Assembly: GCA_964553015.1 (NCBI GenBank)
Contig: CAZKJE010000002.1
Coordinates: 14,175 to 78,174 of the forward strand
DNA: 64,000 bases
Direction: 5' to 3'
Source of the DNA: an uncultured Candidatus Saccharibacteria bacterium
Lineage (GTDB): Bacteria; Patescibacteriota; Minisyncoccia; Phycocordibacterales; UBA9973
Shown here: positions 2,507-60,448 of the stretch, piece by piece
Layout of the letters: each line of letters opens with the position of its first letter
Numbering within the stretch: the first letter of the stretch is position 1
Made by a program: the position numbers and the translations under genes
Notes under the pieces: generated by a model
Database searches by the model: none
Seen by the model: the letters and a program-made list of their open reading frames with translations, nothing else
What the model was told of the DNA's origin: nothing

Positions 2507-3076
2507 ATGATAAGAAATCCCCATCAGATAAAAATAGAATCTTTCTACGGAGAGAATAAGAGGATGCCGACGTATTCGGAAATGATGAAGCTCTTCGGCT
2601 ACAAATCCAAGAATGCGGTTTTTAAAGTCGTGGAGAAATTGATTGACGCAGGGCTCGTCGCCAAAGATCATCTCGGCCGGTTAGTACCCACACAATCTTT
2701 TGGCGAAGTTCCGATGCTTGGGCTGGTGACTGCCGGTTTGCCTGCAAGTGTGGAAGAAGAGCTCGCAGATACTGTGAGCTTGGACGAATTTTTAATAGAA
2801 AAGAAAGCTTTTACATATATGCTAGAGGTGGACGGGGATTCTATGATAGATGCGCACATAGAAAAGGGGGATATGGTTCTCGTCGAGAAGGCAAACCAGG
2901 CTAAAGATATGCAGATAGTCATCGCCGAAGTGGATGGCGAATTTACGATGAAATATTTTAGGCGTGATGGGAATAAATGTTGGCTCGAGCCGGCCAACAA
3001 AAACTACAAACCGATCTATCCGGAACATTCTTTAAATATAAATGCAGTGGTGAAAGCGGTGATTAGGAAATACTAA
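2507..3076 (+). CDS. lexA: LexA repressor (S24 peptidase)
   Basis: 189 aa. N-terminal winged-HTH region (MPTYSEMMKLFGYKSKNAVFKVVEKLIDAGLV), a GLVTAG linker, and a C-terminal S24 domain with the Ser (GDSM) and Lys (TMKYF) dyad context. Confidence 0.85.
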   Translation: MIRNPHQIKIESFYGENKRMPTYSEMMKLFGYKSKNAVFKVVEKLIDAGLVAKDHLGRLVPTQSFGEVPMLGLVTAGLPASVEEELADTVSLDEFLIEKKAFTYMLEVDGDSMIDAHIEKGDMVLVEKANQAKDMQIVIAEVDGEFTMKYFRRDGNKCWLEPANKNYKPIYPEHSLNINAVVKAVIRKY

Positions 3077-3090
3077 ATAAGATAGGAAAT

Positions 3091-3120
3091 CAAAAAATCC
3101 CCCGAATGGGGATTTTTTGA
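3091..3120. terminator. Bidirectional intrinsic terminator between lexA and hup
   Basis: AAAAAATCCCC-(loop)-GGGGATTTTTT hairpin flanked by an A-run and a T-run, so it can act on both strands. Confidence 0.7.
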
Positions 3121-3166
3121 TTTCCTAATTTCTCTCGAGAGAACCCCACTTGGCGGGGCAGGAATA

Positions 3167-32890: not shown

Positions 32891-34456
32891 ATGCAAGATA
32901 AAATTTTTCATACGGTTTGTTTTGGATTTTTATTCGGAGTGCTGTTGCGCTCCTTCTTTTTTATAAGTATATATTTTTCGCTATTAGCCGGAATTATAAC
33001 GCTCGCTTTAATTTTATTTTTTACTCTTATATCCTTCGGCCATAGCCCTACCCTCGGGCGTAGTCCTACGGGCGAGCCGGGTGAGGCAAAAAGCAAATGG
33101 GGAGTTCTGATATCTGTTTTTATTTTTGCCTTTAGTTTTGGAGTTTTTAGATTTGGTCTTGCAGATGTGCCAAATCCTGTCGCCTTTGAATCTCAAGTAG
33201 GCGAAAAAATAACTCTCTCTGGGGAAATTGTAGATGAGTCCAGTATTAGAGAAAATAATCAGCAATTGATTATCGAAACAGAAAAAGAAGCGAGTATAGA
33301 TAGTAAGACAGGAATTTTATTATCAGTAAGTTTGAGTGAGAGTTATAAATACGGTGATAAGATAAATTTTACAGGAACTCTGAAAAAACCGGAAAATTTT
33401 ATCACGGATACCGGCAAAGAGTTTGATTATATAAATTATCTGCGCAAGGACGGCATTTTATACGTCATGAGTTATCCCAAAGTTGAAATTATTTCGCGCG
33501 GCAATGGTAATTTAATAAAAAAATATTTATTTCTCATAAAAGAAAAATTTCTAAATAAAGTGAATTTAGTTATAGCAAGTCCGGAAAATTTATTAATGGG
33601 TGGATTGATCTTGGGGGAGAAATCATCTTTTAGCAAAGATCTCCGGCAGGATTTCGTAGACACCGGCACGATACACATCGTCGCTCTGTCTGGCTACAAT
33701 ATCACCATAGTCGCTGAATGGTTTATGAAACTTTTCGCTCAACTGCCATACCTGTCTAAAAATTTTGGCATAGGCATGGGTGTTTTTGCTATTATATTAT
33801 TTATTTTGATGACGGGCGGAAGTTCGACGGCAGTCCGCGCCGGCATTATGGCAACTCTCGCTCTCGTGGCTAGGGCGACGGGAAGAAATTATGATGTGGC
33901 GCGGGCATTAATTCTTGCCGGAGTCGGCATGATACTTATTAATCCATTTATTTTAGCCTTTGATGTTTCTTTCGAACTTTCTTTTATCGCAACCGTTGCC
34001 GTGATATTCCTAGCGCCAAGAATAGAAAAATATTTTCTATGGGTCACCGAAAGTTTTGGCCTGCGGGACATAGTGTCTGTAACTTGTGCTGCATACATTT
34101 TTGTCTTCCCTTTTATTCTATACAAAATGGGCAATTTATCTCTCGTAGCTCTGCCGGCAAACATTTTAATACTTCCCTTTATTCCGTTTACTATGATGCT
34201 TGGATTTCTGACTGGTATCGCCGGTCTTGTTTTGCCGATATTGTCCCTGCCCATTGGCTATATATCTTATCTTTTTTTACATTATGAGCTATGGGTTATT
34301 AAATTTTTTGCAAATTTGCCGTTTGCGTCATTTTCTTTTCCGAATTTCCCGCTTTTCCTCACTTTGCTAATTTATGCCTATTTTGTCTACTATCTTTTCG
34401 GCAGAAATATAAAAGATTTTTTTAATATGGATAAAGACGAAATAGAAATATTGTAA
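32891..34456 (+). CDS. comEC: ComEC/Rec2 DNA-uptake channel, membrane part
   Basis: 521 aa polytopic protein. DUF4131-like N-part and a Competence domain (TGTIHIVALSGYNITIV). Contains an imperfect GC palindrome at 33053..33076. Confidence 0.8.
   Translation: MQDKIFHTVCFGFLFGVLLRSFFFISIYFSLLAGIITLALILFFTLISFGHSPTLGRSPTGEPGEAKSKWGVLISVFIFAFSFGVFRFGLADVPNPVAFESQVGEKITLSGEIVDESSIRENNQQLIIETEKEASIDSKTGILLSVSLSESYKYGDKINFTGTLKKPENFITDTGKEFDYINYLRKDGILYVMSYPKVEIISRGNGNLIKKYLFLIKEKFLNKVNLVIASPENLLMGGLILGEKSSFSKDLRQDFVDTGTIHIVALSGYNITIVAEWFMKLFAQLPYLSKNFGIGMGVFAIILFILMTGGSSTAVRAGIMATLALVARATGRNYDVARALILAGVGMILINPFILAFDVSFELSFIATVAVIFLAPRIEKYFLWVTESFGLRDIVSVTCAAYIFVFPFILYKMGNLSLVALPANILILPFIPFTMMLGFLTGIAGLVLPILSLPIGYISYLFLHYELWVIKFFANLPFASFSFPNFPLFLTLLIYAYFVYYLFGRNIKDFFNMDKDEIEIL
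33053..33076. repeat. GC-rich imperfect palindrome, in frame in comEC
   Basis: CTCGGGCGTAG-tc-CTACGGGCGAG (9 of 11 positions pair), within the peptide HSPTLGRSPTGEPGEA between TM segments. Confidence 0.5.
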
Positions 34457-40129: not shown

Positions 40130-40642
40130 ATGAAAAATATAGAGAACGCGGGGCGTCTTTCCGAGGAAAAAGCTCAAAAGGAAGCCAAAGCAATTCAAGG
40201 TATGTCAGAGTTTAGGTCTTACGAGGAAGGCTACAAGAATCCAACAGCAGAACATTATGAAAAATCCTCAAAACATTTGGATAATCTAAAAGGGATAAGT
40301 TCTAAAGTTGCAGAGCTTTTTATAGAAGCAGCCGGACTAGGAAAGGATTTGAGAGATGAAATGGGTCCTGAAACACATAGGATATTTGAAATAGCCCAAA
40401 GAGATATTGTCCAACGCCTCAGATTAGAGGGTCTTTTTCTAAGATTGGGTAGTGAAGATCCAGAAGAAGAAAAAGAGAATATGGATTATATTCTTTCCAG
40501 ATGGGACAATGAGATTCGTTCAGATGAACGCATTAAGGATGTTTTCTTAGGGAAAGAGGAATTACTTAATAGGACAATAGAGTTTACTAAAAAGCACACC
40601 TTTCAACTTCTTGCTGGTATTAAGATAGAGATAGGAGAGTAA
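40130..40642 (+). CDS. Hypothetical cytoplasmic protein
   Basis: 170 aa. Helical and charged, with no recognised family. Confidence 0.5.
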   Translation: MKNIENAGRLSEEKAQKEAKAIQGMSEFRSYEEGYKNPTAEHYEKSSKHLDNLKGISSKVAELFIEAAGLGKDLRDEMGPETHRIFEIAQRDIVQRLRLEGLFLRLGSEDPEEEKENMDYILSRWDNEIRSDERIKDVFLGKEELLNRTIEFTKKHTFQLLAGIKIEIGE

Positions 40643-40713
40643 TATAAAAATTTTATAATTAAATCTCGCTTTTCGGTGTAATGAGACATAACTTTATATT
40701 AACATAGATTTTT

Positions 40714-40852
40714 ATTCCCCTCTTGAGGGGTGGCTCGCGTGCAAGACGGGGTGGATAATTTACCTCACCCTGCTGCCCTCTCCTGTAAAGGGGAGGGGAA
40801 AATTCATCCACCTCCCTCCGACCCATGTCGGAGTACTCCTCAAGAGGAGAAT
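40714..40852. mobile_element. MITE-like GC-rich element with terminal inverted repeats
   Basis: The left end ATTCCCCTCTTGAGGGGT and the reverse complement of the right end (ATTCTCCTCTTGAGGAGT) match at 16 of 18 positions. T-runs flank the element. The interior holds further hairpins (CCCTCTCC-TGTAAA-GGGGAGGG and CTCCGAC-CCAT-GTCGGAG). It is non-coding. Confidence 0.5.
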
Positions 40853-40926
40853 TTTTTACTCATATACTACTCTAATCCTATAAATAAGGGTTTTTTGACT
40901 TTGCTAGCAACAAAGTGTAAAAATGC

Positions 40927-40954
40927 TTGACAAAAAATGTAGATATGCTATGAT
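40927..40954 (+). promoter_or_regulatory. Promoter of the candidate structured RNA
   Basis: TTGACA, 16 nt, TATGAT, with TGc immediately upstream of the -10 box. Confidence 0.5.
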
Positions 40955-40960
40955 ATAAGC

Positions 40961-41250
40961 ATCTCATAGATTTTATTTGATTTAATATGAGGTCAAGAGA
41001 TTGTTTCGTATAGTCTCTTGCATATCCCTAAATCAAATGTAGTTTCTCAAAAACGATTAGCGAATTGAGAGATTTTCGCTAAAAACGCTTGAGAAATGAA
41101 GAGCTGAAATCTCTCTGGGTCTGGAGCGCTCGGGTTACCTTTAGCTCTTTGATCCATCTGTTGGTAAAAACCCGAACATCATCGCCGTCGGTTCGAAACA
41201 ACCCTCGGCACCCCACCCAAAGCTTCGGCCGCGGGTGGGTTTTTATTTTT
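40961..41250 (+). ncRNA. Candidate structured non-coding RNA of unknown class (about 290 nt)
   Basis: It has its own promoter. It contains three long perfect-stem hairpins (40975..41038, 41043..41096, 41099..41149). It ends in the intrinsic terminator CCCACCC...GGGTGGG plus TTTTTATTTTT (41212..41250). The only ORF across it is the implausible N-extension of ftsH. Confidence 0.35.
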
Positions 41251-41286
41251 ATACTGAATTTTTTATTTCACATTTTGGGTTTTTTG

Positions 41287-41295
41287 TGCTATTAT
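41287..41295 (+). promoter_or_regulatory. Extended -10 (TGcTATTAT) 6 nt upstream of the ftsH ATG
   Basis: The hexamer ends at 41295 and the ATG is at 41302. No SD is present. Confidence 0.5.
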
Positions 41296-41301
41296 CTCAA
41301 A

Positions 41302-43230
41302 ATGGATTTAAATTTTCTTAACAATAAAACTGGCGACAAAGGGCGAAAGAAACTTCCGAAGCCGACGAAGTTCAGTGGGAATATTTTAGGCGCGATAATT
41401 TTTTTCATGCTCATCACTGCGCTTTACTTGGTGGTAGCAGGAGACCAAAAAACGGTTCCAGAAATTCCAATTTCCGACCTGGCGCAAAGCGTATCTGCGG
41501 GAGAGGTAAAAAATATTTTAGTTTCCGGAGACAAGCTCACCATCACGTACAAAAACGATCAAGTTAAGACATCCAAGAAAGAAGTGGGCTCGGCGCTGTC
41601 GCAGACACTTTTTAATTATGGGGTGCCGCCGGAAGCACTTGCGCAGACAGAAATAGAAATAAAAAACGAAAGTGGATTTGCGTACTGGCTCGTAAATATT
41701 CTGCCGTTTCTTCTGCCGGTAATTTTTATTCTGTTGTTTTTCTGGTATTTATCACGCCAGGTAAAAGGCGCAGGCATGCAGGCGTTTACTTTCGGACAAT
41801 CCAAGGCCCGCATCACAGATCCGAATGATAAAAATAATAAAGTTACTTTCAAAGACGTGGCCGGAGCCAAAGAAGCGAAGGAAGAATTGAAAGAGATTGT
41901 AGACTTTTTGAAAAGTCCGAAAAAATTTCTGGATATTGGCGCAAGGATTCCAAAAGGTGTAATGCTGACAGGAGCCCCGGGTACAGGAAAGACGCTGCTC
42001 GCTCGCGCTGTAGCAGGCGAGGCCTCCGTGCCGTTCTTTCATTTATCCGGCAGCGAATTCGTGGAAATGTTCGTTGGTGTCGGGGCTTCGCGTGTGCGTG
42101 ACCTATTTAAAATGGCTAAAAAAGCTGCACCGGCCATCATATTCGTGGATGAAATAGACGCTATCGGGCGCACGAGAGGGGGAGGCTTTGGCGGCGGGAA
42201 TGATGAACGCGAGCAAACCTTGAACCAGATTTTGGTGGAGATGGACGGCTTTGAACCGAACGATAAAGTGATAGTCATGGCGGCTACAAACAGGCCGGAC
42301 GTCCTCGATCCGGCGCTCATTCGCCCGGGACGTTTTGATAGAAAAGTAATGATAGATCTTCCGGATCGCGCTGACCGCGAAGAAATTTTAAAAATTCACG
42401 CTGTTAAAAAACCTCTCGCCGAAGATATAAATTTGAAATTAATTGCCGAACGTACACCTGGTTTTTCTGGCGCCGACCTGTATTCGCTCATGAACGAAGG
42501 TGCGATACTCGCCGCACGCGAGAACCGCAAGAAAGTTTTTCAATTTGATCTCATACGCGCGATAGAAAAAGTAATGCTCGGTCCTGAGAGGAAGAGCCAT
42601 TTGCTTTCCAAAAAAGAAAAAGAAATTACTGCGTACCATGAAGCGGGTCATGCGATCGTCGCATCAGTTTTACCTCACGCAGATCCCGTTCATAAAGTTT
42701 CTATCATCTCCCGCGGAAACGCCGGAGGATACACTTTGAAGCTTCCGCTTGAAGAAAGGCGATTGCAATCTAAAAAAGAATTTATAGATGACATTGCGAT
42801 GTCGCTCGGAGGATATGTGGCCGAGCAGATGATGTTCGGAGATATCACGACTGGTCCGTCAAGCGATTTGCAGGCAGCAACAAACATTGCGCGCGCCATG
42901 GTGACGCGCTGGGGCATGTCGGACATTATCGGACCGATAGCCTTGAACGATTCTCCCGGCCGTTCTATGTATGGAGGAGAAACAGTAGAAAAAGAATTTT
43001 CCGAAAGTGTTTCTACTAAAGTAGATGCTGAAGTTTCAAGAATAATTAGTGATGGGCTAAAGTCTGCGCAAATCGTAATTACCGAAAACAAAAAAGCCTT
43101 TGAGGCTATAGCACAAAAACTCATAGAAGTTGAAACCATAGAACAGGAGGAATATGAAAAAATTCTCATAGCGCACGGAATTATCTTAAAAAAGAAAGAA
43201 GTCATAGCTCCACCGGAAGGTACAAAGTAA
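41302..43230 (+). CDS. ftsH: ATP-dependent zinc metalloprotease FtsH
   Basis: Start moved to ATG 41302 (MDLNFLNN...). Two TM segments, Walker [12 protein letters not shown], the SRH region and the HEAGHA zinc site. Confidence 0.95.
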
Positions 43231-43323: not shown

Positions 43324-43998
43324 ATGGCGAGAAAACAAGATAAACAAAGCGTTTTGGCTATGCGCAAGAGAGGAATGAGCTACAGCCAGATCAAAGGGAA
43401 AATAAAAATAAGCAAAAGCACTTTGAGTGTCTGGCTTAAAGATTTACCACTCGATGAAAAACGGATAAGAGAATTAAGAGACAATAGCCCTATTCGTATT
43501 GAAAAATTCAGAAATACAATGCGAGCAAAAAAAGAGATGAGACTTTATGAGGTATATAAAAAAGTCGCAAATGATATTTGTGATCTCTCAAAAAGAGATT
43601 TATTTTTAACAGGCTTGTTCTTATATTGGGGAGAAGGCACGAAATCACAAAATTCTTTAGTTGCCCTCACAAATACAAATCCAGCCATGGTTAAGTTTTT
43701 CATACAATGGCTAAAATTGTTTGGAGTAAAAAGCAAAGATTTGAAAATTAAACTACATTTATACTCCGATATGAAAATTAAAGAAAGTCTTGATTTTTGG
43801 TCAAAAGAGCTTAATATTCCGATAAGCCAGTTTTATAAGCCGTATGTTAAGAAAAATACTCTCAAATCTATCTCGTATAAAAATGGCTTTGGAAAAGGAA
43901 CATGTAGTGTTATATTTGGGAGTAGAGATCTTTGGGAATATATAACAATGGGATTGAAATATATTTCTGAAATTAGTAATGAAAATTTCCGCCCCTAG
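43324..43998 (+). CDS. HTH plus LAGLIDADG-like (homing-endonuclease-like) protein
   Basis: 224 aa. N-terminal resolvase-type HTH (RGMSYSQIKGKIKISKSTLSVWLK). A single LAGLIDADG-like motif (LTGLFLYWGEGTK). The last 10 nt, including the TAG stop, lie inside the tRNA gene. Confidence 0.45.
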   Translation: MARKQDKQSVLAMRKRGMSYSQIKGKIKISKSTLSVWLKDLPLDEKRIRELRDNSPIRIEKFRNTMRAKKEMRLYEVYKKVANDICDLSKRDLFLTGLFLYWGEGTKSQNSLVALTNTNPAMVKFFIQWLKLFGVKSKDLKIKLHLYSDMKIKESLDFWSKELNIPISQFYKPYVKKNTLKSISYKNGFGKGTCSVIFGSRDLWEYITMGLKYISEISNENFRP

Positions 43999-44061
43999 CT
44001 CAGTTGGTAGAGCAATCCGCTTATACCGGATCGGTCCTTGGTTCGAGTCCAAGGGGGCGGA
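43989..44061 (+). tRNA. tRNA-Ile with anticodon UAU
   Basis: Cloverleaf read by hand: acceptor CCGCCCC/GGGGCGG, D-arm GCTC-AGTTGGTA-GAGC, anticodon arm ATCCG-CTTATAC-CGGAT, variable loop CGGTC, T-arm CTTGG-TTCGAGT-CCAAG, discriminator A. CCA is not encoded. Confidence 0.8.
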
Positions 44062-44063
44062 CA

Positions 44064-47749: not shown

Positions 47750-49957
47750 TTACTCGAAGTGAAACTCTCCGGCTTTGGTGCGGACTTTTTGTTTTAGGAG
47801 AGGATATTTACTTAGTTCGGGGTCAGATTCTATCATGCTAATAGCTTCAGTTCTAGCCGCTTCTACCATTTTTATATTTTTTATAGCTTCCATGCCGAGA
47901 TCAGTGATGCCCCACTGCTTTGTACCGCCAAGCTCTCCGGCGCCTCGGAGTGTGAGATCTAGCTCTGCCAATTCAAAACCATTTTTTGCAGTCTTGAGCG
48001 CTTTAAGGCGGTCTACGGTTTTTGCGCTTTTGGCTTCAGCAAAAATATAACAATATGCCTGATGCGAACTTCGGATCACCCGTCCGCGGAGCTGATGCAA
48101 TTGGGCCAATCCAAAACGCTCCGCACCTTCTATGATAATTATTGTCGCATTTGGAACATTCACTCCGACTTCTACCACGGACGTAGCGCATAAGATATGT
48201 ATCTTGCCTTCGGTAAATTCCTGCATTACCTCTTCTTTTTTTTCTCTGCTCATCTTGGAATGAAGTACGCCTATTTCATACTCTTTGAACACTCGCTCTT
48301 TTAATATTTTAGCTTCAGCTACGGCAGATTTTACATTTAAAGCCATTTCTTTTTCAGGATCAGGCTCAAAAATTCGCGGGCAGATGACGTAGAGCTGTCT
48401 ACCGGCCTCCAATTCTTTTCTGATTGCTTCGTAAGTGTTAGTCCTCTTGTCCGGAGTAATAATCTCTGTAATTATTTGTTTTCTTCCTACCGGCATTTCG
48501 TCTAAAAGCGACAGATCCAAATCTCCGTATATCGTGAGCGCGAGCGTGCGGGGGATAGGAGTTGCGGTCATGGATAGCAGGTGCGGAGCGATGTTATCTT
48601 TGCGCACTAACTTTCTTCTTTGTGCTGTGCCGAAGCGATGCTGTTCGTCTATCACCACAAGTGCAAGATTTTTAAATTTAACAGTTTTTTGAATGAGCGC
48701 ATGTGTACCGATAAGTATAGGTATCTCGCCGTTTCCGATCCATTTCAAAAGTTGTGCTCGGGAAATTGTTGTCCAGCTTGCCCCGTCCTTGGCGGGACCG
48801 ATTGTTTTTGATGGAAATTTTCTGCAGCCACTTCCAGTGATCAAGCCTATGTTTATCGGCAAATGCTTGAAATATTCTATGAAAGATTCAAAATGTTGCG
48901 TTGCTAATATTTCTGTCGGCGCCATGTATGCCACTTGCAAATTACCAAAATTTTGTGGTTTACCCTGGGTGTAATCGAAGGGCCTTTGCTGTACTGTCAC
49001 ATAGCTTGCAGTCGCAGCTACAGCAGTTTTACCGGAGCCGACATCGCCTTCGAGTAATCGCGACATCGGAAAATTCTTTGCCAGATCAGCAAGTATCGTT
49101 GCGATGGATTTTTCTTGTGATTTTGTCGGTTTAAAAGGGAAGCGCTTCAGAAATTCTTCTGCACTTTTCTTTTCAGGTTTTATTTGAAAAGATTTATTTT
49201 TTCTATATTCAAATTTATCATGCTGGCGTTCCAGCTGAATACAGAATACTTCTTCAAAAGCGAATCGTTTGCGTGCCGACTGCGCATCGGCTTTATTTTT
49301 CGGTTTGTGTATCCAAATAAGCGCGGTTTTCAGAGTAGGCAAATGATATTTTTTTAAAATTTCGGCCGGAATATAATCTTCAATATTATCCAAAGTTTTT
49401 TCTTTAAATATTTTTTCAATTGCGTGGTAAAACCATTTGGAAGTGATACCTCGCGTCTCCGCATAAATTGGATAAGACAGACCCTCCCCCAACCCCTCCC
49501 TTCGCAGGGCGGGGCTTTTAAATAATGTGTCGTGCGAATCTATCGGCATATTCGGCAATTTTTCAAATTCCGGATTAGCAAGATACATGCCATTTTTGCC
49601 TTGCGTGACTTTGCCCGTCAGCTTCACATTTTCGCCGTCATGGATCATTTTTGCCAAGTAAGTCTGATTGAACCATGTGATTTTTATTTTTCCAGATAAA
49701 TCTTCTATTTCGCCTTCGCCCATGGGCATTTTTGAACGAAATCCTTTTTTGGTTTTCAATTTTGAAACTTTGCCATATACAGTAGCCATATCTCCGGCAA
49801 CTAATTCAGCAATATTCTTTACCTCGCTGATATCGCTGTAGCGGACAGGGAAGTGAAACAAGAGATCAGCCACAGAAAAAATCTTGAGCTTATGCAAAGC
49901 CCTTTTCTGGCTTTCATCCAGCCTGAATTTTAGTTCAAGCTTATCGCTTAAATTCAT
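47750..49957 (-). CDS. recG: ATP-dependent DNA helicase RecG
   Basis: Start moved to ATG 49957, because the track extension overlaps the pilin gene. Wedge domain and helicase motifs GDVGSGKT and VIDEQHRFG. Contains an in-frame GC element at 49481..49516. Confidence 0.9.
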   Translation of the reverse strand: MNLSDKLELKFRLDESQKRALHKLKIFSVADLLFHFPVRYSDISEVKNIAELVAGDMATVYGKVSKLKTKKGFRSKMPMGEGEIEDLSGKIKITWFNQTYLAKMIHDGENVKLTGKVTQGKNGMYLANPEFEKLPNMPIDSHDTLFKSPALRREGLGEGLSYPIYAETRGITSKWFYHAIEKIFKEKTLDNIEDYIPAEILKKYHLPTLKTALIWIHKPKNKADAQSARKRFAFEEVFCIQLERQHDKFEYRKNKSFQIKPEKKSAEEFLKRFPFKPTKSQEKSIATILADLAKNFPMSRLLEGDVGSGKTAVAATASYVTVQQRPFDYTQGKPQNFGNLQVAYMAPTEILATQHFESFIEYFKHLPINIGLITGSGCRKFPSKTIGPAKDGASWTTISRAQLLKWIGNGEIPILIGTHALIQKTVKFKNLALVVIDEQHRFGTAQRRKLVRKDNIAPHLLSMTATPIPRTLALTIYGDLDLSLLDEMPVGRKQIITEIITPDKRTNTYEAIRKELEAGRQLYVICPRIFEPDPEKEMALNVKSAVAEAKILKERVFKEYEIGVLHSKMSREKKEEVMQEFTEGKIHILCATSVVEVGVNVPNATIIIIEGAERFGLAQLHQLRGRVIRSSHQAYCYIFAEAKSAKTVDRLKALKTAKNGFELAELDLTLRGAGELGGTKQWGITDLGMEAIKNIKMVEAARTEAISMIESDPELSKYPLLKQKVRTKAGEFHFE
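49481..49516. repeat. GC-rich palindromic element, in frame in recG, opposite orientation to the carB copy
   Basis: CCCCTCCC-TTCGCA-GGGCGGGG (49493..49514) with a CCCTCCCCCAA leader. Read on the minus strand as SPALRREGLGEGL. Confidence 0.7.
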
Positions 49958-56947: not shown

Positions 56948-59900
56948 ATGCAGAAGCATGAAAACAATAACTCCAAATCAGAAGCAGCTTTGCGCGAAGA
57001 GCGAGTTTTGGAATTTTGGAAAGAAAATAAGATATTTAAAAAGTCGCTGGAGAAAAAATCCCCAAAGGGAGAATTTGTGTTTTATGATGGTCCAGTTACG
57101 GCAAACTCAAAGCCAGTTTTGCATACAATGCTACCTTTTTCTTTCAAAGATGTTATTCCCAGATATAAAACTATGCGCGGATATCATGTACGAAGGAAAG
57201 GCGGTTGGGATACGCATGGGCTTCCGGTAGAACTGCAAATAGAAAAAAAACTTGGGTTCAATTCAAAAGCAGATATTGAAAATTATGGTATTGCAGCTTT
57301 CAATAAATTATGTAAGGACAGTGTTTGGGAGTACGTTGGGGCATGGAAAAGTTTTACCGAACGAATGGGCTACTGGGCAGATCAAGATAATGCATATGTC
57401 ACATATTATAATAATTATATTGAATCTGTTTGGAATATAGTAAAAAAAATAAATGAGCAGAATCTGCTTTATAAAGATTACAAAGTGGTGCCGTGGTGCC
57501 CGAGGTGCGGTACAGCACTGTCTTCGCATGAGCTCGCACAGGGATACGAAGATGTAAAAGATCTGTCAGTGTATGTAAAGTTTAAGATAACTACGCCAGT
57601 GCAGGAAAATTCTGCCGCTTTACCCGCAAGCGGGCTCCGACACGGACAAAATTTTCCCGCATTGGCTCCGCAGTATATCCTCGCCTGGACGACGACGCCG
57701 TGGACCCTGCCCGGGAACGTTGCCTTAGCCGTCGGCGAAAATATTGATTATGTAAAGGTAAAGAGTGGAGAAGAGTTTTATATTCTCGCCAAAGAGAAGC
57801 TTTCAATCATAACCGAACCATATGAGATAGTGGAAGAGGTCAAGGGCGCGGGGCTAGTAGGGCTCGAATACGAGCCGTTGTATCCATATCTTGCAAATAC
57901 GGTTTCGGATACAGAAAAACCAAAATTAGAAAAGGCATACAAGGTGCACAAGGCAAACTTTGTGACCACAGATGACGGCACCGGCGTGGTGCATACGGCT
58001 GTGATGTATGGGCAAGATGACTTTATGCTCGGAACAGAAGTCGGCCTGCCGAAGCACCACCTCGTAGGTCTCGATGGCAAATTTTTAGCAGGCACAGGTA
58101 TTTTTGAAGGACGATTTGTAAAAGATGAAGAAGTCGCCGTAGATATCATTAAAGACTTGGCGCACCGCGGGCTTCTTTTCAAAAAAGAAAAATACGAGCA
58201 CTCGTATCCGCACTGCTGGCGCTGTAAAACTCCGCTCATATATTACGCGCGGGATTCTTGGTATATCCGGATGTCTGATCCTAGAATAAAAGCCGAAATG
58301 ATAAAGGAGAATAAAGAAATAAACTGGGAGCCGGAGCATATTCGCGACGGGCGGTTTGGGCAGTGGCTGGAAGAAATAAAAGACTGGGCAATATCCCGCG
58401 AACGGTACTGGGGCACGCCGCTGCCGGTCTGGGCCTGCGAAGCGTGTAAAAAAATTGAAGTAGTAGGAAGCGTAGAAGATCTAAAAAGTAGAACCAAAAA
58501 GTCTGGCAATAAATATTTTGTGATGCGGCACGGCGAGGCTGTCGATAACGCCAAGCATTTGGGTGATCCGAAAGGCGATCCAAATAATCACCTGACTGAT
58601 AAAGGGAAAAAAGAAATAATTCTTACCGCAGAAGAATTAAAAAATAAAAAAATTGATTTTATCTTTACGTCTTCTTTTCTGCGAACCAAAGAAACAGCAG
58701 AGGTCTTGAGAAAAGAACTAGGTTTGGAGCAAGAAAAAGTAATAGTTGAAGATAGATTGCATGAACACAATGAGGGAGACACTAAGCTCGTTCGCAAAAG
58801 GATGGCCGACTTTATTTATGAAATAGAAAAAAATTACGAAAATAAAAATATCTTAATAATTTCGCACGGAAATCCTATCTGGATCCTGCAGAAAACCGCT
58901 TTGGGCTTGTCTATAAATAATTTTACAGAAGGCGAGATGCTGCATACCGGCGAAGTCAAAGAATTAGATTTTATACCGCTACCGCATAATGAAAATTATG
59001 AGCTTGATCTGCACAAGCCTTATATAGATGAAATAAATCTTGTTTGTTCATGTGGTGGAAAATTAACACGCACGAAAGAAGTCATGGACGTGTGGTTTGA
59101 TTCGGGAGGCATGTCTTTTGCGCAGGATCATTACCCTTTCGATAACGCTTCCGGTAAATCTTTTGACGGCAAAGAACTTTTATATCCGGCGGATTTTATT
59201 TCAGAGGGCATAGATCAGACGCGCGGATGGTTTTACACCTTGCATGCTGTTGGAATTCTCTTGGGGCGGGGCAAGGCTTACAAAAACGTAATCTGCCTTG
59301 GCCATCTTCTCGACGCTAAGGGCAAAAAAATGTCCAAATCTCTCGGCAACGTCGTCGAGCCGTTTCTTGCGATGGATACATATGGCGTGGATACTTTGCG
59401 TTTGTGGATGTATTCCATAAATCAGCCGGGCGAATCCAAGAATTTTGATGAGAAAACAGTAGCGCTTCTTTCTCAGCAGATTTTTGGCTTGCTTTACAAT
59501 GTGCTTGCGTTTTATGAACTTTATCGCGATGTTTCGCTAGAGCCTAGAGCCTATGGCCTAAAGCCCAGCAATATTTTAGATAAATGGATCTTGGCGCGTC
59601 TAGATGAGTTGACAGAGCTTGCAACCAAAAATTTAGATAACTACAAATTGCTGGAGCCAGTGCGGGGCATGAGAGACTTTATCGGCGATCTTTCTACTTG
59701 GTATTTGCGCCGTTCGCGCGACAGGATAAAATCCTCCTCCGCACAAGGCTCCGGTGGAACAAGGGAAGGAGATGAAGCGAAGGAAACTCTGTACTATGTG
59801 CTAAAAACCTTGGCAAAACTCATGGCTCCGCTCGCGCCGTTTGCCGCTGAAGACATCTGGCTTAAGTTAAAAAATGAAGATGATGAAGAAAGCGTGCATT

Positions 59901-60448
59901 TGGCGAGCTGGCCGGAAGTAAAAAAGACATCTTTTATCTCCAAGTTGCTTAAAAATGATCCAAGCAAAAAAATAATTGAAAATATGGAGAGCGTCAGAAG
60001 AGTAGTCACACTCGGACTCGAAGCTCGACAGAAAACCGGAATAAAAGTCCGCCAGCCTCTTAATCAATTACGAATTAAAAATTACGAATTAGGAATTGAG
60101 TATGCAGACTTGATTAGAGAAGAGCTGAATGTCAGAGAAGTTATTTTTGATAATTCTATTGAAGGCGAGGTGTGGCTCGATATAAGAATAAACGAAGAGC
60201 TCAAAGCTGAAGGGGATTACAGGGAGTTTGTCCGCGCGCTGCAGGATATGAGAAAGAAAACCGGACTGACGCCGAGCGACGTGGTCTCTGTTACTTTTGA
60301 AACAAACAAAGCAGGCAAGGAACTTATTAAAAAATTCGAAGCTGAAATGAAAAAAACAGTGCTTGTCTCTACGATAGAATTTTCGGAAAATGAAGGAGAA
60401 AAAATAAAAATCGACAATCTTCACTTCAGGATAAAAATTGATAAATAA
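56948..60448 (+). CDS. ileS: Isoleucine--tRNA ligase with a nested histidine-phosphatase domain
   Basis: 1166 aa. IleRS hallmarks: WDTHGLPVE, editing-domain [10 protein letters not shown] and [13 protein letters not shown], KMSKS. An extra domain of about 163 aa lies at residues 522-684. Confidence 0.9.
   Translation: [1166 protein letters not shown]
58511..58999 (+). other. Histidine-phosphatase (PGAM-like) domain inserted within ileS
   Basis: Ordered motifs [43 protein letters not shown] and LIISHGNPI. Flanked by IleRS CxxC (ACEACKK) and CxC (VCSCGG) segments. Confidence 0.75.

Follow-up and report, generated by a model that had tools for sequence, protein, structure and literature searches.

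In a 64,000-nucleotide stretch of a contig from an uncultured Candidatus Saccharibacteria bacterium (hereafter termed the window), the spacer upstream of ftsH harbors a 139-bp sequence at positions 40714-40852 whose ends are inverted copies of each other and whose interior contains further GC-rich hairpins. In the initial annotation of the locus, this sequence had been described as an element resembling MITEs (miniature transposable elements bounded by inverted repeats). Our analysis assigns it to a widespread family of palindromic hairpin repeats, which we term family 1. In the reading that we favor and consider probable, it is a non-autonomous copy of a selfish repeat, and a gene-less derivative of cassettes in which the same kind of hairpin module brackets a gene of the DUF559 family.

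A composite hairpin element upstream of ftsH

The left arm of the element, ATTCCCCTCTTGAGGGGT (40714-40731), and its right arm (40835-40852), which reads ATTCTCCTCTTGAGGAGT when reverse-complemented, agree in 16 of 18 positions, as initially reported, and none of 100 dinucleotide shuffles matched this agreement. The two differences (C5 to T and G16 to A) leave the palindrome of each arm intact in the compensatory manner that had been proposed. T-runs border the element on both sides (40709-40713 and 40853-40857), and both interior hairpins of the initial description, CCCTCTCC-TGTAAA-GGGGAGGG and CTCCGAC-CCAT-GTCGGAG, are present. Its assignment as non-coding and intergenic holds, since it starts 71 nt past the stop of an open reading frame (ORF) at 40130-40642 and its end is separated by 74 nt from the -35 hexamer of a promoter-like site; the two ORFs that overlap it (55 and 66 amino acids) are without Pfam family. 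With its 139 bp it falls into the range of MITEs, which are non-coding and shorter than about 600 bp. The predicted fold of the whole element is far more stable than that of shuffled sequences, with z = -6.0 on the + strand and -4.4 on the - strand, and both a fold with a long stem and one with local hairpins are predicted. The features of the locus, named after the plan of family-1 relatives, in which two inverted modules A and B enclose a central loop to form a doublet, are listed below.

40130-40642, + strand: upstream ORF of 170 amino acids without Pfam family, ending 71 nt before the element
40714-40852, + strand: whole element, a family-1 A-B doublet with a canonical part of about 95 nt and about 44 nt nested within it, collinear with 20 or more copies of 80-98 nt
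40714-40731, + strand: H1, left terminal palindrome of module A, ATTCCCCTCTTGAGGGGT, hairpin CCCCT-CTTG-AGGGG, invariant in 17 of 17 aligned doublets
40732-40747, + strand: P2, variable hairpin of module A, GGCTCGCGTGCAAGAC, with one C/A mismatch compared to the stem CTCGC/GCGAG of the relative L111
40748-40755, + strand: tail block GGGGTGGA, 5' arm of the central stem P3, invariant, pairing with 40807-40815 in predicted folds
40753-40760, + strand: left copy, GGATAATT, of an imperfect 8-nt direct repeat (7/8 compared to 40797-40804)
40761-40800, + strand: nested unit of a second hairpin family (family 2) in the central loop, with boundaries that are ambiguous by about 8 nt, consisting of ACCTCACCC (40762-40770), the spacer TGCTG and the hairpin CCCTCTCC-TGTAAA-GGGGAGGG (40776-40797)
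40797-40804, + strand: right copy, GGAAAATT, of the imperfect 8-nt direct repeat
40807-40815, + strand: block TCCACCTCC, which belongs to module B and supplies the 3' arm of P3, conserved in aligned doublets
40816-40833, + strand: P4, variable hairpin of module B, CTCCGAC-CCAT-GTCGGAG, with a perfect 7-bp stem
40835-40852, + strand: H5, right terminal palindrome of module B, ACTCCTCAAGAGGAGAAT, hairpin CTCCT-CAAG-AGGAG, invariant in aligned doublets
40853-40857, + strand: T-run directly 3' of the element, forming an intrinsic-terminator-like site together with its stem
40927-40954, + strand: sigma-70-like promoter with TTGACA (-35 at 40927-40932), a 16-nt spacer and TATGAT (11/12, extended TG)
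41089-43230, + strand: ftsH, the downstream gene, with AAA and Peptidase_M41 domains, separated from the element by the promoter-like site

The genes smpB, tmRNA and infC are located just upstream of this locus on the other strand.

Comparison with its relatives defines the element as composite. Its left half is the same as that of L111 except for 2 nt, its P4 stem is the same as in L116, and pairwise alignment to both copies leaves one 44-nt gap, which is located in the central loop. The arms of P3, which in canonical copies enclose loops of about 2-12 nt, are 51 nt apart in the window copy, and the intervening family-2 unit, flanked by GGAWAATT repeats, is absent from the 20 canonical copies that were aligned. 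The imperfect direct repeat fits a duplication or a microhomology junction. Judged from its sequence, the window element is a family-1 doublet of about 95 nt that later received a family-2 unit of about 40 nt in its loop.

Family-2 units have the form [A]CCYCWCCC, followed by 2-5 nt and a hairpin; seen from the opposite strand, the hairpin precedes a tail of the GGGTGAGGT type. Besides the nested copy, the window contains the following units.

2205-2240: intergenic, upstream of the LexA-like gene at 2507-3076
9409-9449: in-frame inside carB, encoding NPTSPNPPLGRGGAL
13246-13312: in-frame inside tig (trigger factor), a doublet with tails outward
49476-49518: in-frame inside recG
33037-33088: possible unit in comEC (uncertain)

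The likeness of the interior of the element to positions 2215-2237 in the lexA 5' untranslated region, which had been noted before, is real, as both are family-2 hairpin units, and the notion of a shared GC-hairpin vocabulary is likewise borne out. The element had been suggested as a possible full-length or composite form of the shorter elements inside genes. It is composite, but not their full-length form, because the in-gene elements of the window belong to a different, smaller family than the outer element. Elsewhere, family-2 units are found in L009, L076 and L131, in the last two beside a family-1 module. The motif TTATCCACC that had been pointed out on the minus strand (40750-40758) is present but merely part of the family consensus. 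An independent DnaA-box-like site at this position is ruled out, because TTATCCACC (read as GGTGGATAA on the + strand) lies in the invariant GGGGTGGA block plus loop.

Relatives of the element between and within genes

For the identification of relatives, we scanned one genome per GTDB species with the exact pattern ATTCYCCTCTYGAGGRGT and obtained at least 157 matches in at least 120 stretches. Further copies thus exist elsewhere, and the alternative of a single-copy sequence, which the initial annotation had considered, does not apply at the level of the family. A BLASTN search of cultured phages and plasmids found no match. Among the matches listed, several copies per assembly occur, pairs in +/- orientation at a distance of 80-132 bp are frequent (with 80-98 bp being typical in Patescibacteria), and at least 24 A-B doublets align collinearly with the window copy. 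Doublets in Patescibacteria are distributed over Nomurabacteria, Paceibacteria/Paceibacterota, Parcubacteria, Saccharibacteria and unclassified members. Their canonical form of 80-98 nt joins module A, across a short loop, to its variant module B in inverted orientation, according to the plan H1 ATTCCCCTCTTGAGGGGT; G, the variable hairpin P2 and (A/C)C; GGGGTGGA; a short A/T-rich loop; TCCACCTCC; P4; and H5 TACTCCTCAAGAGGAGAAT. Module A contains ATTCCCCTCTTGAGGGGT, a variable covarying hairpin and then CGGGGTGGA, whereas its variant module B, read on the other strand, contains ATTCTCCTCTTGAGGAGT, A, a hairpin and GGAGGTGGA. Either module thus combines a fixed terminal palindrome (TTCCCCTCTTGAGGGG, with the variant end TTCTCCTCTTGAGGAG), a GC hairpin of conserved structure but variable sequence and a fixed G-rich tail (GGGGTGGA or GGAGGTGGA).

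The 18-mer ATTCCCCTCTTGAGGGGT of H1 is found in many phyla. Solo copies of module A (about 45 nt) are dispersed and multi-copy in many other lineages, including Bacteroidota, Ignavibacteriota/Kapabacteria, two termite-gut metagenome-assembled genomes (MAGs) of Bacillota, a Thermotogaceae MAG, Nitrospirota, Desulfobulbaceae, Sulfurovum, Hyphomicrobiales and Gracilibacteria. Symmetric A-A' doublets are present in L027, L114, L103 and L115. A canonical A-B doublet is located at 5200-5295 of L016, a 14-kb contig binned as Simkania (Chlamydiota), which reflects either transfer across phyla or a binning error. In the window itself, the DNA of one gene segment is 77% identical to a Paceibacterota contig, so that a Patescibacteria genome is its most likely source. 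Among 11 viral contigs matching the 18-mer, only L009 contains related modules, two in number. In 8 of the 11 (L003, L005-L008, L010, L012 and L013), the 18-mer ACCCCTCAAGAGGGGAAT is part of one recurring phage context, probably a phage coding region. As the likeness of these eight contigs to the element stops at the 18-mer, we rejected them as family copies, and their shared context is a possible source of false positives in pattern scans. A literature search, incomplete in its coverage, found no published account of the family or of DUF559 cassettes with hairpin ends.

The conservation pattern of the family defines which hairpins are maintained. In the 17 aligned doublets, the four fixed blocks show no variation, whereas P2, the loop and P4 differ between copies in both sequence and length. 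Among the matches listed, the 108 distinct middle segments are nearly all hairpins, with a mean minimum free energy per nucleotide of -0.30 compared to -0.09 in shuffles. The P4 stem of the window copy recurs in L116 with another loop, and the stem at this position covaries within the family as CCC/GGG, CCCGC/GCGGG and CTCTGC/GCAGAG. Within the terminal palindrome, positions 5 and 16 covary across the 157 matches, with C..G in 128, T..A in 23 and discordant pairs in 6 (Fisher p = 2e-21, with counts uncorrected for relatedness). If the arms of a doublet are instead paired to each other, the same C·A and G·U mispairs are kept in 17 of 17 cases. Since these mispairs are constant while each arm is self-complementary, local hairpins at the ends are maintained rather than a long stem between the arms, which can be ruled out as the selected structure. 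Triloops of the type c(GNA)g (CGAAG, CGTAG, CGCAG and similar) close the hairpins of 37 of 102 distinct modules. Mini-hairpins of the d(GCGAAGC) type are unusually stable in DNA, and the triloops hint at a single-stranded DNA form of the element.

Numerous copies reside within genes and are translated. In-frame copies occupy the same site of KsgA/RsmA in five genomes across Nomurabacteria, Paceibacterota and Saccharibacteria and the same site of PheT in three genomes, with Tgt and RNase R each containing a copy in one genome. The reading frame is N/D-S-P-L-E in all nine clear in-gene cases, eight of which give (N/D)SPLEEYP...ATPQEGN, and all of these eight, in the orientation from module B to module A, have a length of 2 mod 3; intergenic copies are found in every length class. 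In the best 120 homologues of KsgA, the site NISRKNF | ... | EEKFWEI contains family 1 in 40 cases, is empty in 29 and holds other hairpin inserts or remnants in 51, with some of the family-1 copies bearing further nested inserts. KsgA proteins that are about 92% identical outside this site nevertheless differ in its occupancy, and three ksgA genes with about 87% overall identity of their coding DNA contain an 80-nt element, almost nothing, and a different hairpin element, respectively. A given P2 subtype is found more than once in a lineage, at different loci, as in the case of CTCGGTAATCCGAG in several loci of Nomurabacteria, and a copy in the Tgt gene of one genome is nearly identical to copies in KsgA genes of other genomes. 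This gain, loss and spread of copies is, at the level of the family, as expected of mobile DNA. Alleles with an empty site, which had been regarded as informative in the initial annotation, are thus available for the family in KsgA, but none was obtained for the window copy.

The KsgA loop constitutes an extreme insertion hotspot (L093/L036/L106/L062/L059 and proteins P0004-P0123). In L036, KsgA contains a second small insert around residues 60-75, STPLPQAGAPLKRG, encoded by a CCCCTCAAGAGGGG-type palindrome, and since this protein also carries the family-1 element, several elements are possible in one gene.

DUF559 genes between hairpin modules

In the initial annotation, a search for a cognate transposase elsewhere had been suggested. 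We clustered all ORFs of at least 110 codons in the 120 loci, which together cover about 0.9 Mb. Among these clusters, we did not find a recurrent DDE- or HUH-like neighbour, but only syntenic housekeeping genes and DUF559, which in these loci, surveyed without a systematic domain scan, is the only ORF family bracketed by modules. A candidate cognate form that carries a gene between the same ends exists, but this gene encodes a DUF559/Vsr-like endonuclease and not a classical transposase. The cassette proteins match Pfam PF04480 with E values of 2e-24 to 8e-36, have PDB 3hrl as closest solved structure and belong to the VSR/DUF559 group of PD-(D/E)xK nucleases, which includes the homing endonuclease I-Bth0305I (PMC3424549). 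In L056, the DUF559 ORF is located exactly between two inverted copies of module A, and the whole unit measures 523 bp. Solo modules with the P2 and tail subtype of the right end of L056 are present in L067, another contig of this MAG, and in L122 copies of module A are located immediately upstream of a DUF559 gene. The ends of L056 and of the cassette L137 described below contain the H1 18-mer of the window element. The DNA flanking the L056 unit is itself directly repeated (CCAAGTTTTTGGTGTTGGAGT, 1-21 and 565-585), with the second repeat being followed by the short palindrome ATTCCCAAAAGAGGGGAAT (593-611), possibly the terminal palindrome in unfilled or degenerate form.

The association was also found in an independent sample of 80 metagenomic loci that were chosen solely by DUF559 homology. 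Inverted repeats of at least 12 nt link the flanks of the gene in 30 of the 66 loci with enough flank, compared to 3.5% in cross-locus controls. The two closest homologues in the sample (60% identity) have module-A ends, which in L137 match in 45 of 45 nt, and the same architecture is found in L138, L144, L166, L193 and others. Ends with a variant palindrome, TTCCCC...GGGG-TGGC followed by a hairpin and GACGGGGT, are present in L144, L142, L166 and L193, and the DUF559 genes of L089, L079 and L195 are bracketed by family-2 units. The cassettes comprise 470-770 bp, with DUF559 as their sole gene, are free-standing between hairpin inverted repeats and contain no intron or intein signatures that we could see. 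In L137 (491-1077), and also in L138, a cassette with perfect 45-nt module-A repeats is inserted in-frame inside hsdS, the gene for a type I restriction specificity subunit. In L137, the open frame spans both repeats and the nuclease.

A target-site duplication, which had been proposed as a feature to look for, is not evident for the window copy, for other doublets or for six cassettes. The flanks of the window copy are T-runs on both sides and are uninformative in this respect. In 92 of 131 copies, an A at position -1 creates AATT-like palindromic junctions, which are indistinguishable from an extension of the inverted repeat. No direct repeats were detected in doublets or the six cassettes, and a fixed target duplication is not supported. 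The termini of cassettes reduce to TTCCCC...GGGGAA with variable flanks, which explains the 2 mod 3 rule of in-gene copies without duplication.

Origin of the element and relation to known repeats

In the favored reading, the doublet of two inverted modules around a short loop has full-length relatives that hold a DUF559 gene in the loop, and loss of this internal gene would have generated MITE-like doublets, including the window element. We regard doublets as internal-deletion derivatives because the A-A' doublets correspond collinearly to cassettes without their gene. An enzyme acting in trans, for which the DUF559 nuclease is the leading candidate, would recognize the modules in their folded hairpin form, probably on DNA that is single-stranded or cruciform, and insertion would proceed into A/T-rich sites without clear target duplication. 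In tiny genomes, the surviving copies would be those that landed between genes or in regions encoding permissive protein loops, with in-frame translation in the latter case. The local effect of the window copy is probably neutral, and it may act as intrinsic terminator of the gene encoding the 170-residue protein and insulate the ftsH promoter. A bolder version of this proposal, which we put forward tentatively, holds that hairpin modules and DUF559 gene together constitute a previously unrecognized class of bacterial mobile elements, where a Vsr-like nuclease would recognize its own folded terminal hairpins and drive the copying of both cassettes of about 0.5 kb and their gene-less derivatives of 80-140 nt. 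In this process, DUF559 might make use of the G·T and C·A mismatches that are conserved where A-B arms pair with each other.

Several observations weigh against this interpretation. Within the 64-kb window, neither a second family-1 copy (in self-BLAST and with nhmmer profiles) nor a DUF559 gene was found. Exact-product look-ups of flanking proteins returned no record, and an orthologous empty site for the window copy was not obtained, because the single distant homologue of its 170-residue neighbour is located in different synteny. Direct repeats beyond palindromic A/T are not found to flank doublets or the six cassettes, all observed cassette ends are of the A-A' type with no A-B heterodimer among them, and DUF559 genes are flanked by modules with tails pointing inward as well as outward, which a one-element model leaves unexplained. 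We know of no demonstrated transposase or mobilizing activity in a DUF559 protein, and it is just as plausible that the protein is a homing endonuclease entering the loop of doublets that existed before it. Moreover, most matches are located on MAG contigs, where mis-binning is possible, as for the Simkania contig L016, and the near-identity of blocks across phyla could reflect a host function instead of selfish spread.

An alternative view is that the repeats form an independent family akin to repetitive extragenic palindromic sequences (REPs) and their doublet form, REPINs, or to CGTC-tagged REPs, which would be moved by a RAYT/HUH enzyme or a host factor, with DUF559 as homing parasite or cargo in the loop and the window copy as ordinary REPIN-like doublet. 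We regard this alternative as rather doubtful, although its architecture is well matched, as REPINs consist of two imperfect palindromes inverted around a spacer (PMC3116915, PMC3337134). In 52 of 102 distinct modules, AC precedes the G-run of the C-rich strand, corresponding to CCCCGT on the other strand, and in most modules H1 is followed by GG, which with the preceding T is equivalent to CCA, thus resembling the CGTC head and CCA tail. CGTC REPs also dimerize head-to-head, sit in genes, are reported to occur without linked transposase and overlap in their taxa (PMC3733652). The cGNAg triloops suggest single-stranded DNA hairpins, the Vsr-like enzymes include the proven homing endonuclease I-Bth0305I (PMC3424549, PMC3239194), and DUF559 genes are found with both module orientations. 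On the other side, no Y1/HUH gene was found beside any module in the 120 loci, which were inspected without a systematic domain scan or whole-genome HUH scan, and stems of 3-11 bp with an extra terminal palindrome differ from the published CGTC stems of 8-9 bp. Finally, the bracketing hairpin family differs between independent clades of DUF559, which is more economical if gene and ends travel together.

A role as functional structured RNA or cis-regulator of the locus, either as 3' terminator and stabilizer or as ftsH leader instead of selfish DNA, appears unlikely to us. Such a role would be in line with the strong fold (z = -6.0), with conserved blocks and covarying hairpins resembling an RNA family, and with the adjoining T-run, which together with the stem at 40836-40849, as AATTTTTT, is scored as terminator-like on the + strand in a terminator scan. 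Still, Rfam finds in the window only tmRNA and a tRNA at gathering threshold, with no match at the element, and even at E <= 10 (40600-41150) only chance-level matches to miRNAs and snoRNAs. The promoter-like site of ftsH is located downstream of the element, and other copies occur in both orientations, in unrelated spacers and translated in KsgA, PheT, Tgt and RNase R, with the element being present or absent among near-identical genes. The T-run after the stem is not common to other family copies, and since these reside in any context, the terminator role looks incidental, as by-product of landing in a T-tract. We consider it highly improbable that the element is a classical MITE of insertion-sequence origin, mobilized by the DDE transposase of an insertion sequence with the same 18-bp terminal inverted repeats. 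The size, the terminal inverted repeats, the A/T-rich flanks and the dispersal would all be accounted for in this way, the AATT-like junctions with A at -1 (92/131) could hide a palindromic duplication of 2-4 bp, and the length of 2 mod 3 in 8 of 8 clear in-gene cases might be viewed in the same light. This length rule is, however, explained by the variable-flank termini TTCCCC...GGGGAA, no DDE transposase-sized ORF is located between or beside modules in the 120 loci, direct repeats beyond palindromic A/T are lacking in doublets and cassettes, and the compensatory changes favor the recognition of folded hairpins. The initial label as MITE-like thus stands with respect to size, inverted repeats and, at the family level, dispersal and polymorphism, but gains no clear support from target duplication and transposase partner. 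A chance palindrome without relatives in an AT-rich spacer, to which the single copy within the window might point, has a practically negligible probability and is already refuted by dozens of collinear copies elsewhere and by 0 of 100 matching shuffles.

Returning to the favored reading of a gene-less cassette derivative, its relation to known systems can be defined by shared and distinct properties. As in the REPIN/REP-RAYT system (Bertels & Rainey 2011), we find inverted imperfect palindromes with the possibility of a long hairpin, dispersed singlets and doublets, a single enzyme gene between inverted units, no obvious target duplication and a likely recognition of a folded single strand. 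In REPINs, the enzyme gene is itself flanked by inverted repeat units, and the repeats are reported to be lineage-specific and vertically inherited (PMC3116915, PMC3337134). In contrast to the HUH Y1 transposase of that system, the enzyme is here a DUF559/Vsr-like PD-(D/E)xK endonuclease, the units lack a GTAG head and contain two hairpins and a G-rich tail, and copies are often located in genes and translated, with blocks that are nearly identical across phyla. CGTC REPs (Di Nocera et al. 2013) include RPE-4 and RPE-6 of Rickettsia and dRS3 of Neisseria, occur in Bacteroidetes, Chlorobi, Thermotogae, Sulfurovum and alpha-proteobacteria, encode 20-30 residues in their intragenic copies and have no known dedicated transposase (PMC3733652). 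Both repeats share a CGT(C)-like head and CCA-like tail around a variable hairpin on the C-rich strand, a predominance of head-to-head dimers, intragenic copies and overlapping phyla, whereas the 8-9-bp stems and 4-5-nt loops of the published families differ from the 3-11 bp and frequent triloops found here, as does the extra invariant terminal palindrome with GGGGTGGA tail. The ends of Neisseria dRS3 read ATTCCC...GGGAAT.

A further parallel is offered by RPE-1 of Rickettsia, which similarly comprises hairpin repeats of about 100 bp located in-frame in housekeeping genes of a reduced genome, with translated loops and no known mobilization mechanism (PMC3733652, PMC1779305). RPE-1 differs in lineage and presumably in sequence, and the family described here also includes gene-carrying cassettes with the same ends and extends across many phyla. 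With bacterial MITEs such as Correia and Nezha (PMC10969869), the element shares small size, lack of coding capacity, inverted repeats, dispersal and the presumed origin by internal deletion of a longer element, but no DDE partner was found for it in the 120 loci, no target-site duplication is demonstrable, and its ends are self-folding hairpins with compensatory substitutions. The cassette protein belongs to the same nuclease group as Vsr-like homing endonucleases such as I-Bth0305I (Dassa 2009, PMC2677866; Taylor 2011, PMC3239194), and sites in conserved genes are similarly occupied repeatedly, with the L137 cassette located in-frame in hsdS. The known enzymes of that kind, however, are found within group I introns or in the interval that separates split inteins, without structured inverted-repeat ends or gene-less derivatives. 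The window element is thus best filed with repeats of the REP/RPE/MITE kind, as composite non-autonomous member of a widespread palindromic family.

Apart from these repeats, the window contains other features of interest. The isoleucyl-tRNA synthetase-like ORF at 56948-60448 (1166 amino acids) includes a match to His_Phos_1 at residues 524-611 within the class I synthetase domain, an unusual insertion, and ARAGORN detects a tRNA-Ile with anticodon TAT at 43989-44062, an uncommon mode of AUA reading in bacteria. Perfect hairpins of 20 bp and 15 bp, with A/T runs on both sides, follow the LexA-like gene (3083-3127) and tig (13847-13880), respectively. They look like bidirectional terminators and are unrelated in sequence to the GC-hairpin families.

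If the proposed involvement of DUF559 is true, a common domain of unknown function would gain a role and a testable substrate, and the world of REPs, RPEs and MITEs would extend to a nuclease family not known to mobilize DNA. The elements would then have spread across phyla and colonized permissive loops of essential Patescibacteria proteins in-frame, as a source of peptide inserts and length variation in KsgA, PheT, Tgt, RNase R, CarB, trigger factor and RecG. In metagenome-assembled genomes of the candidate phyla radiation, such elements confound gene calling and protein alignment, and they could serve as strain-level markers.

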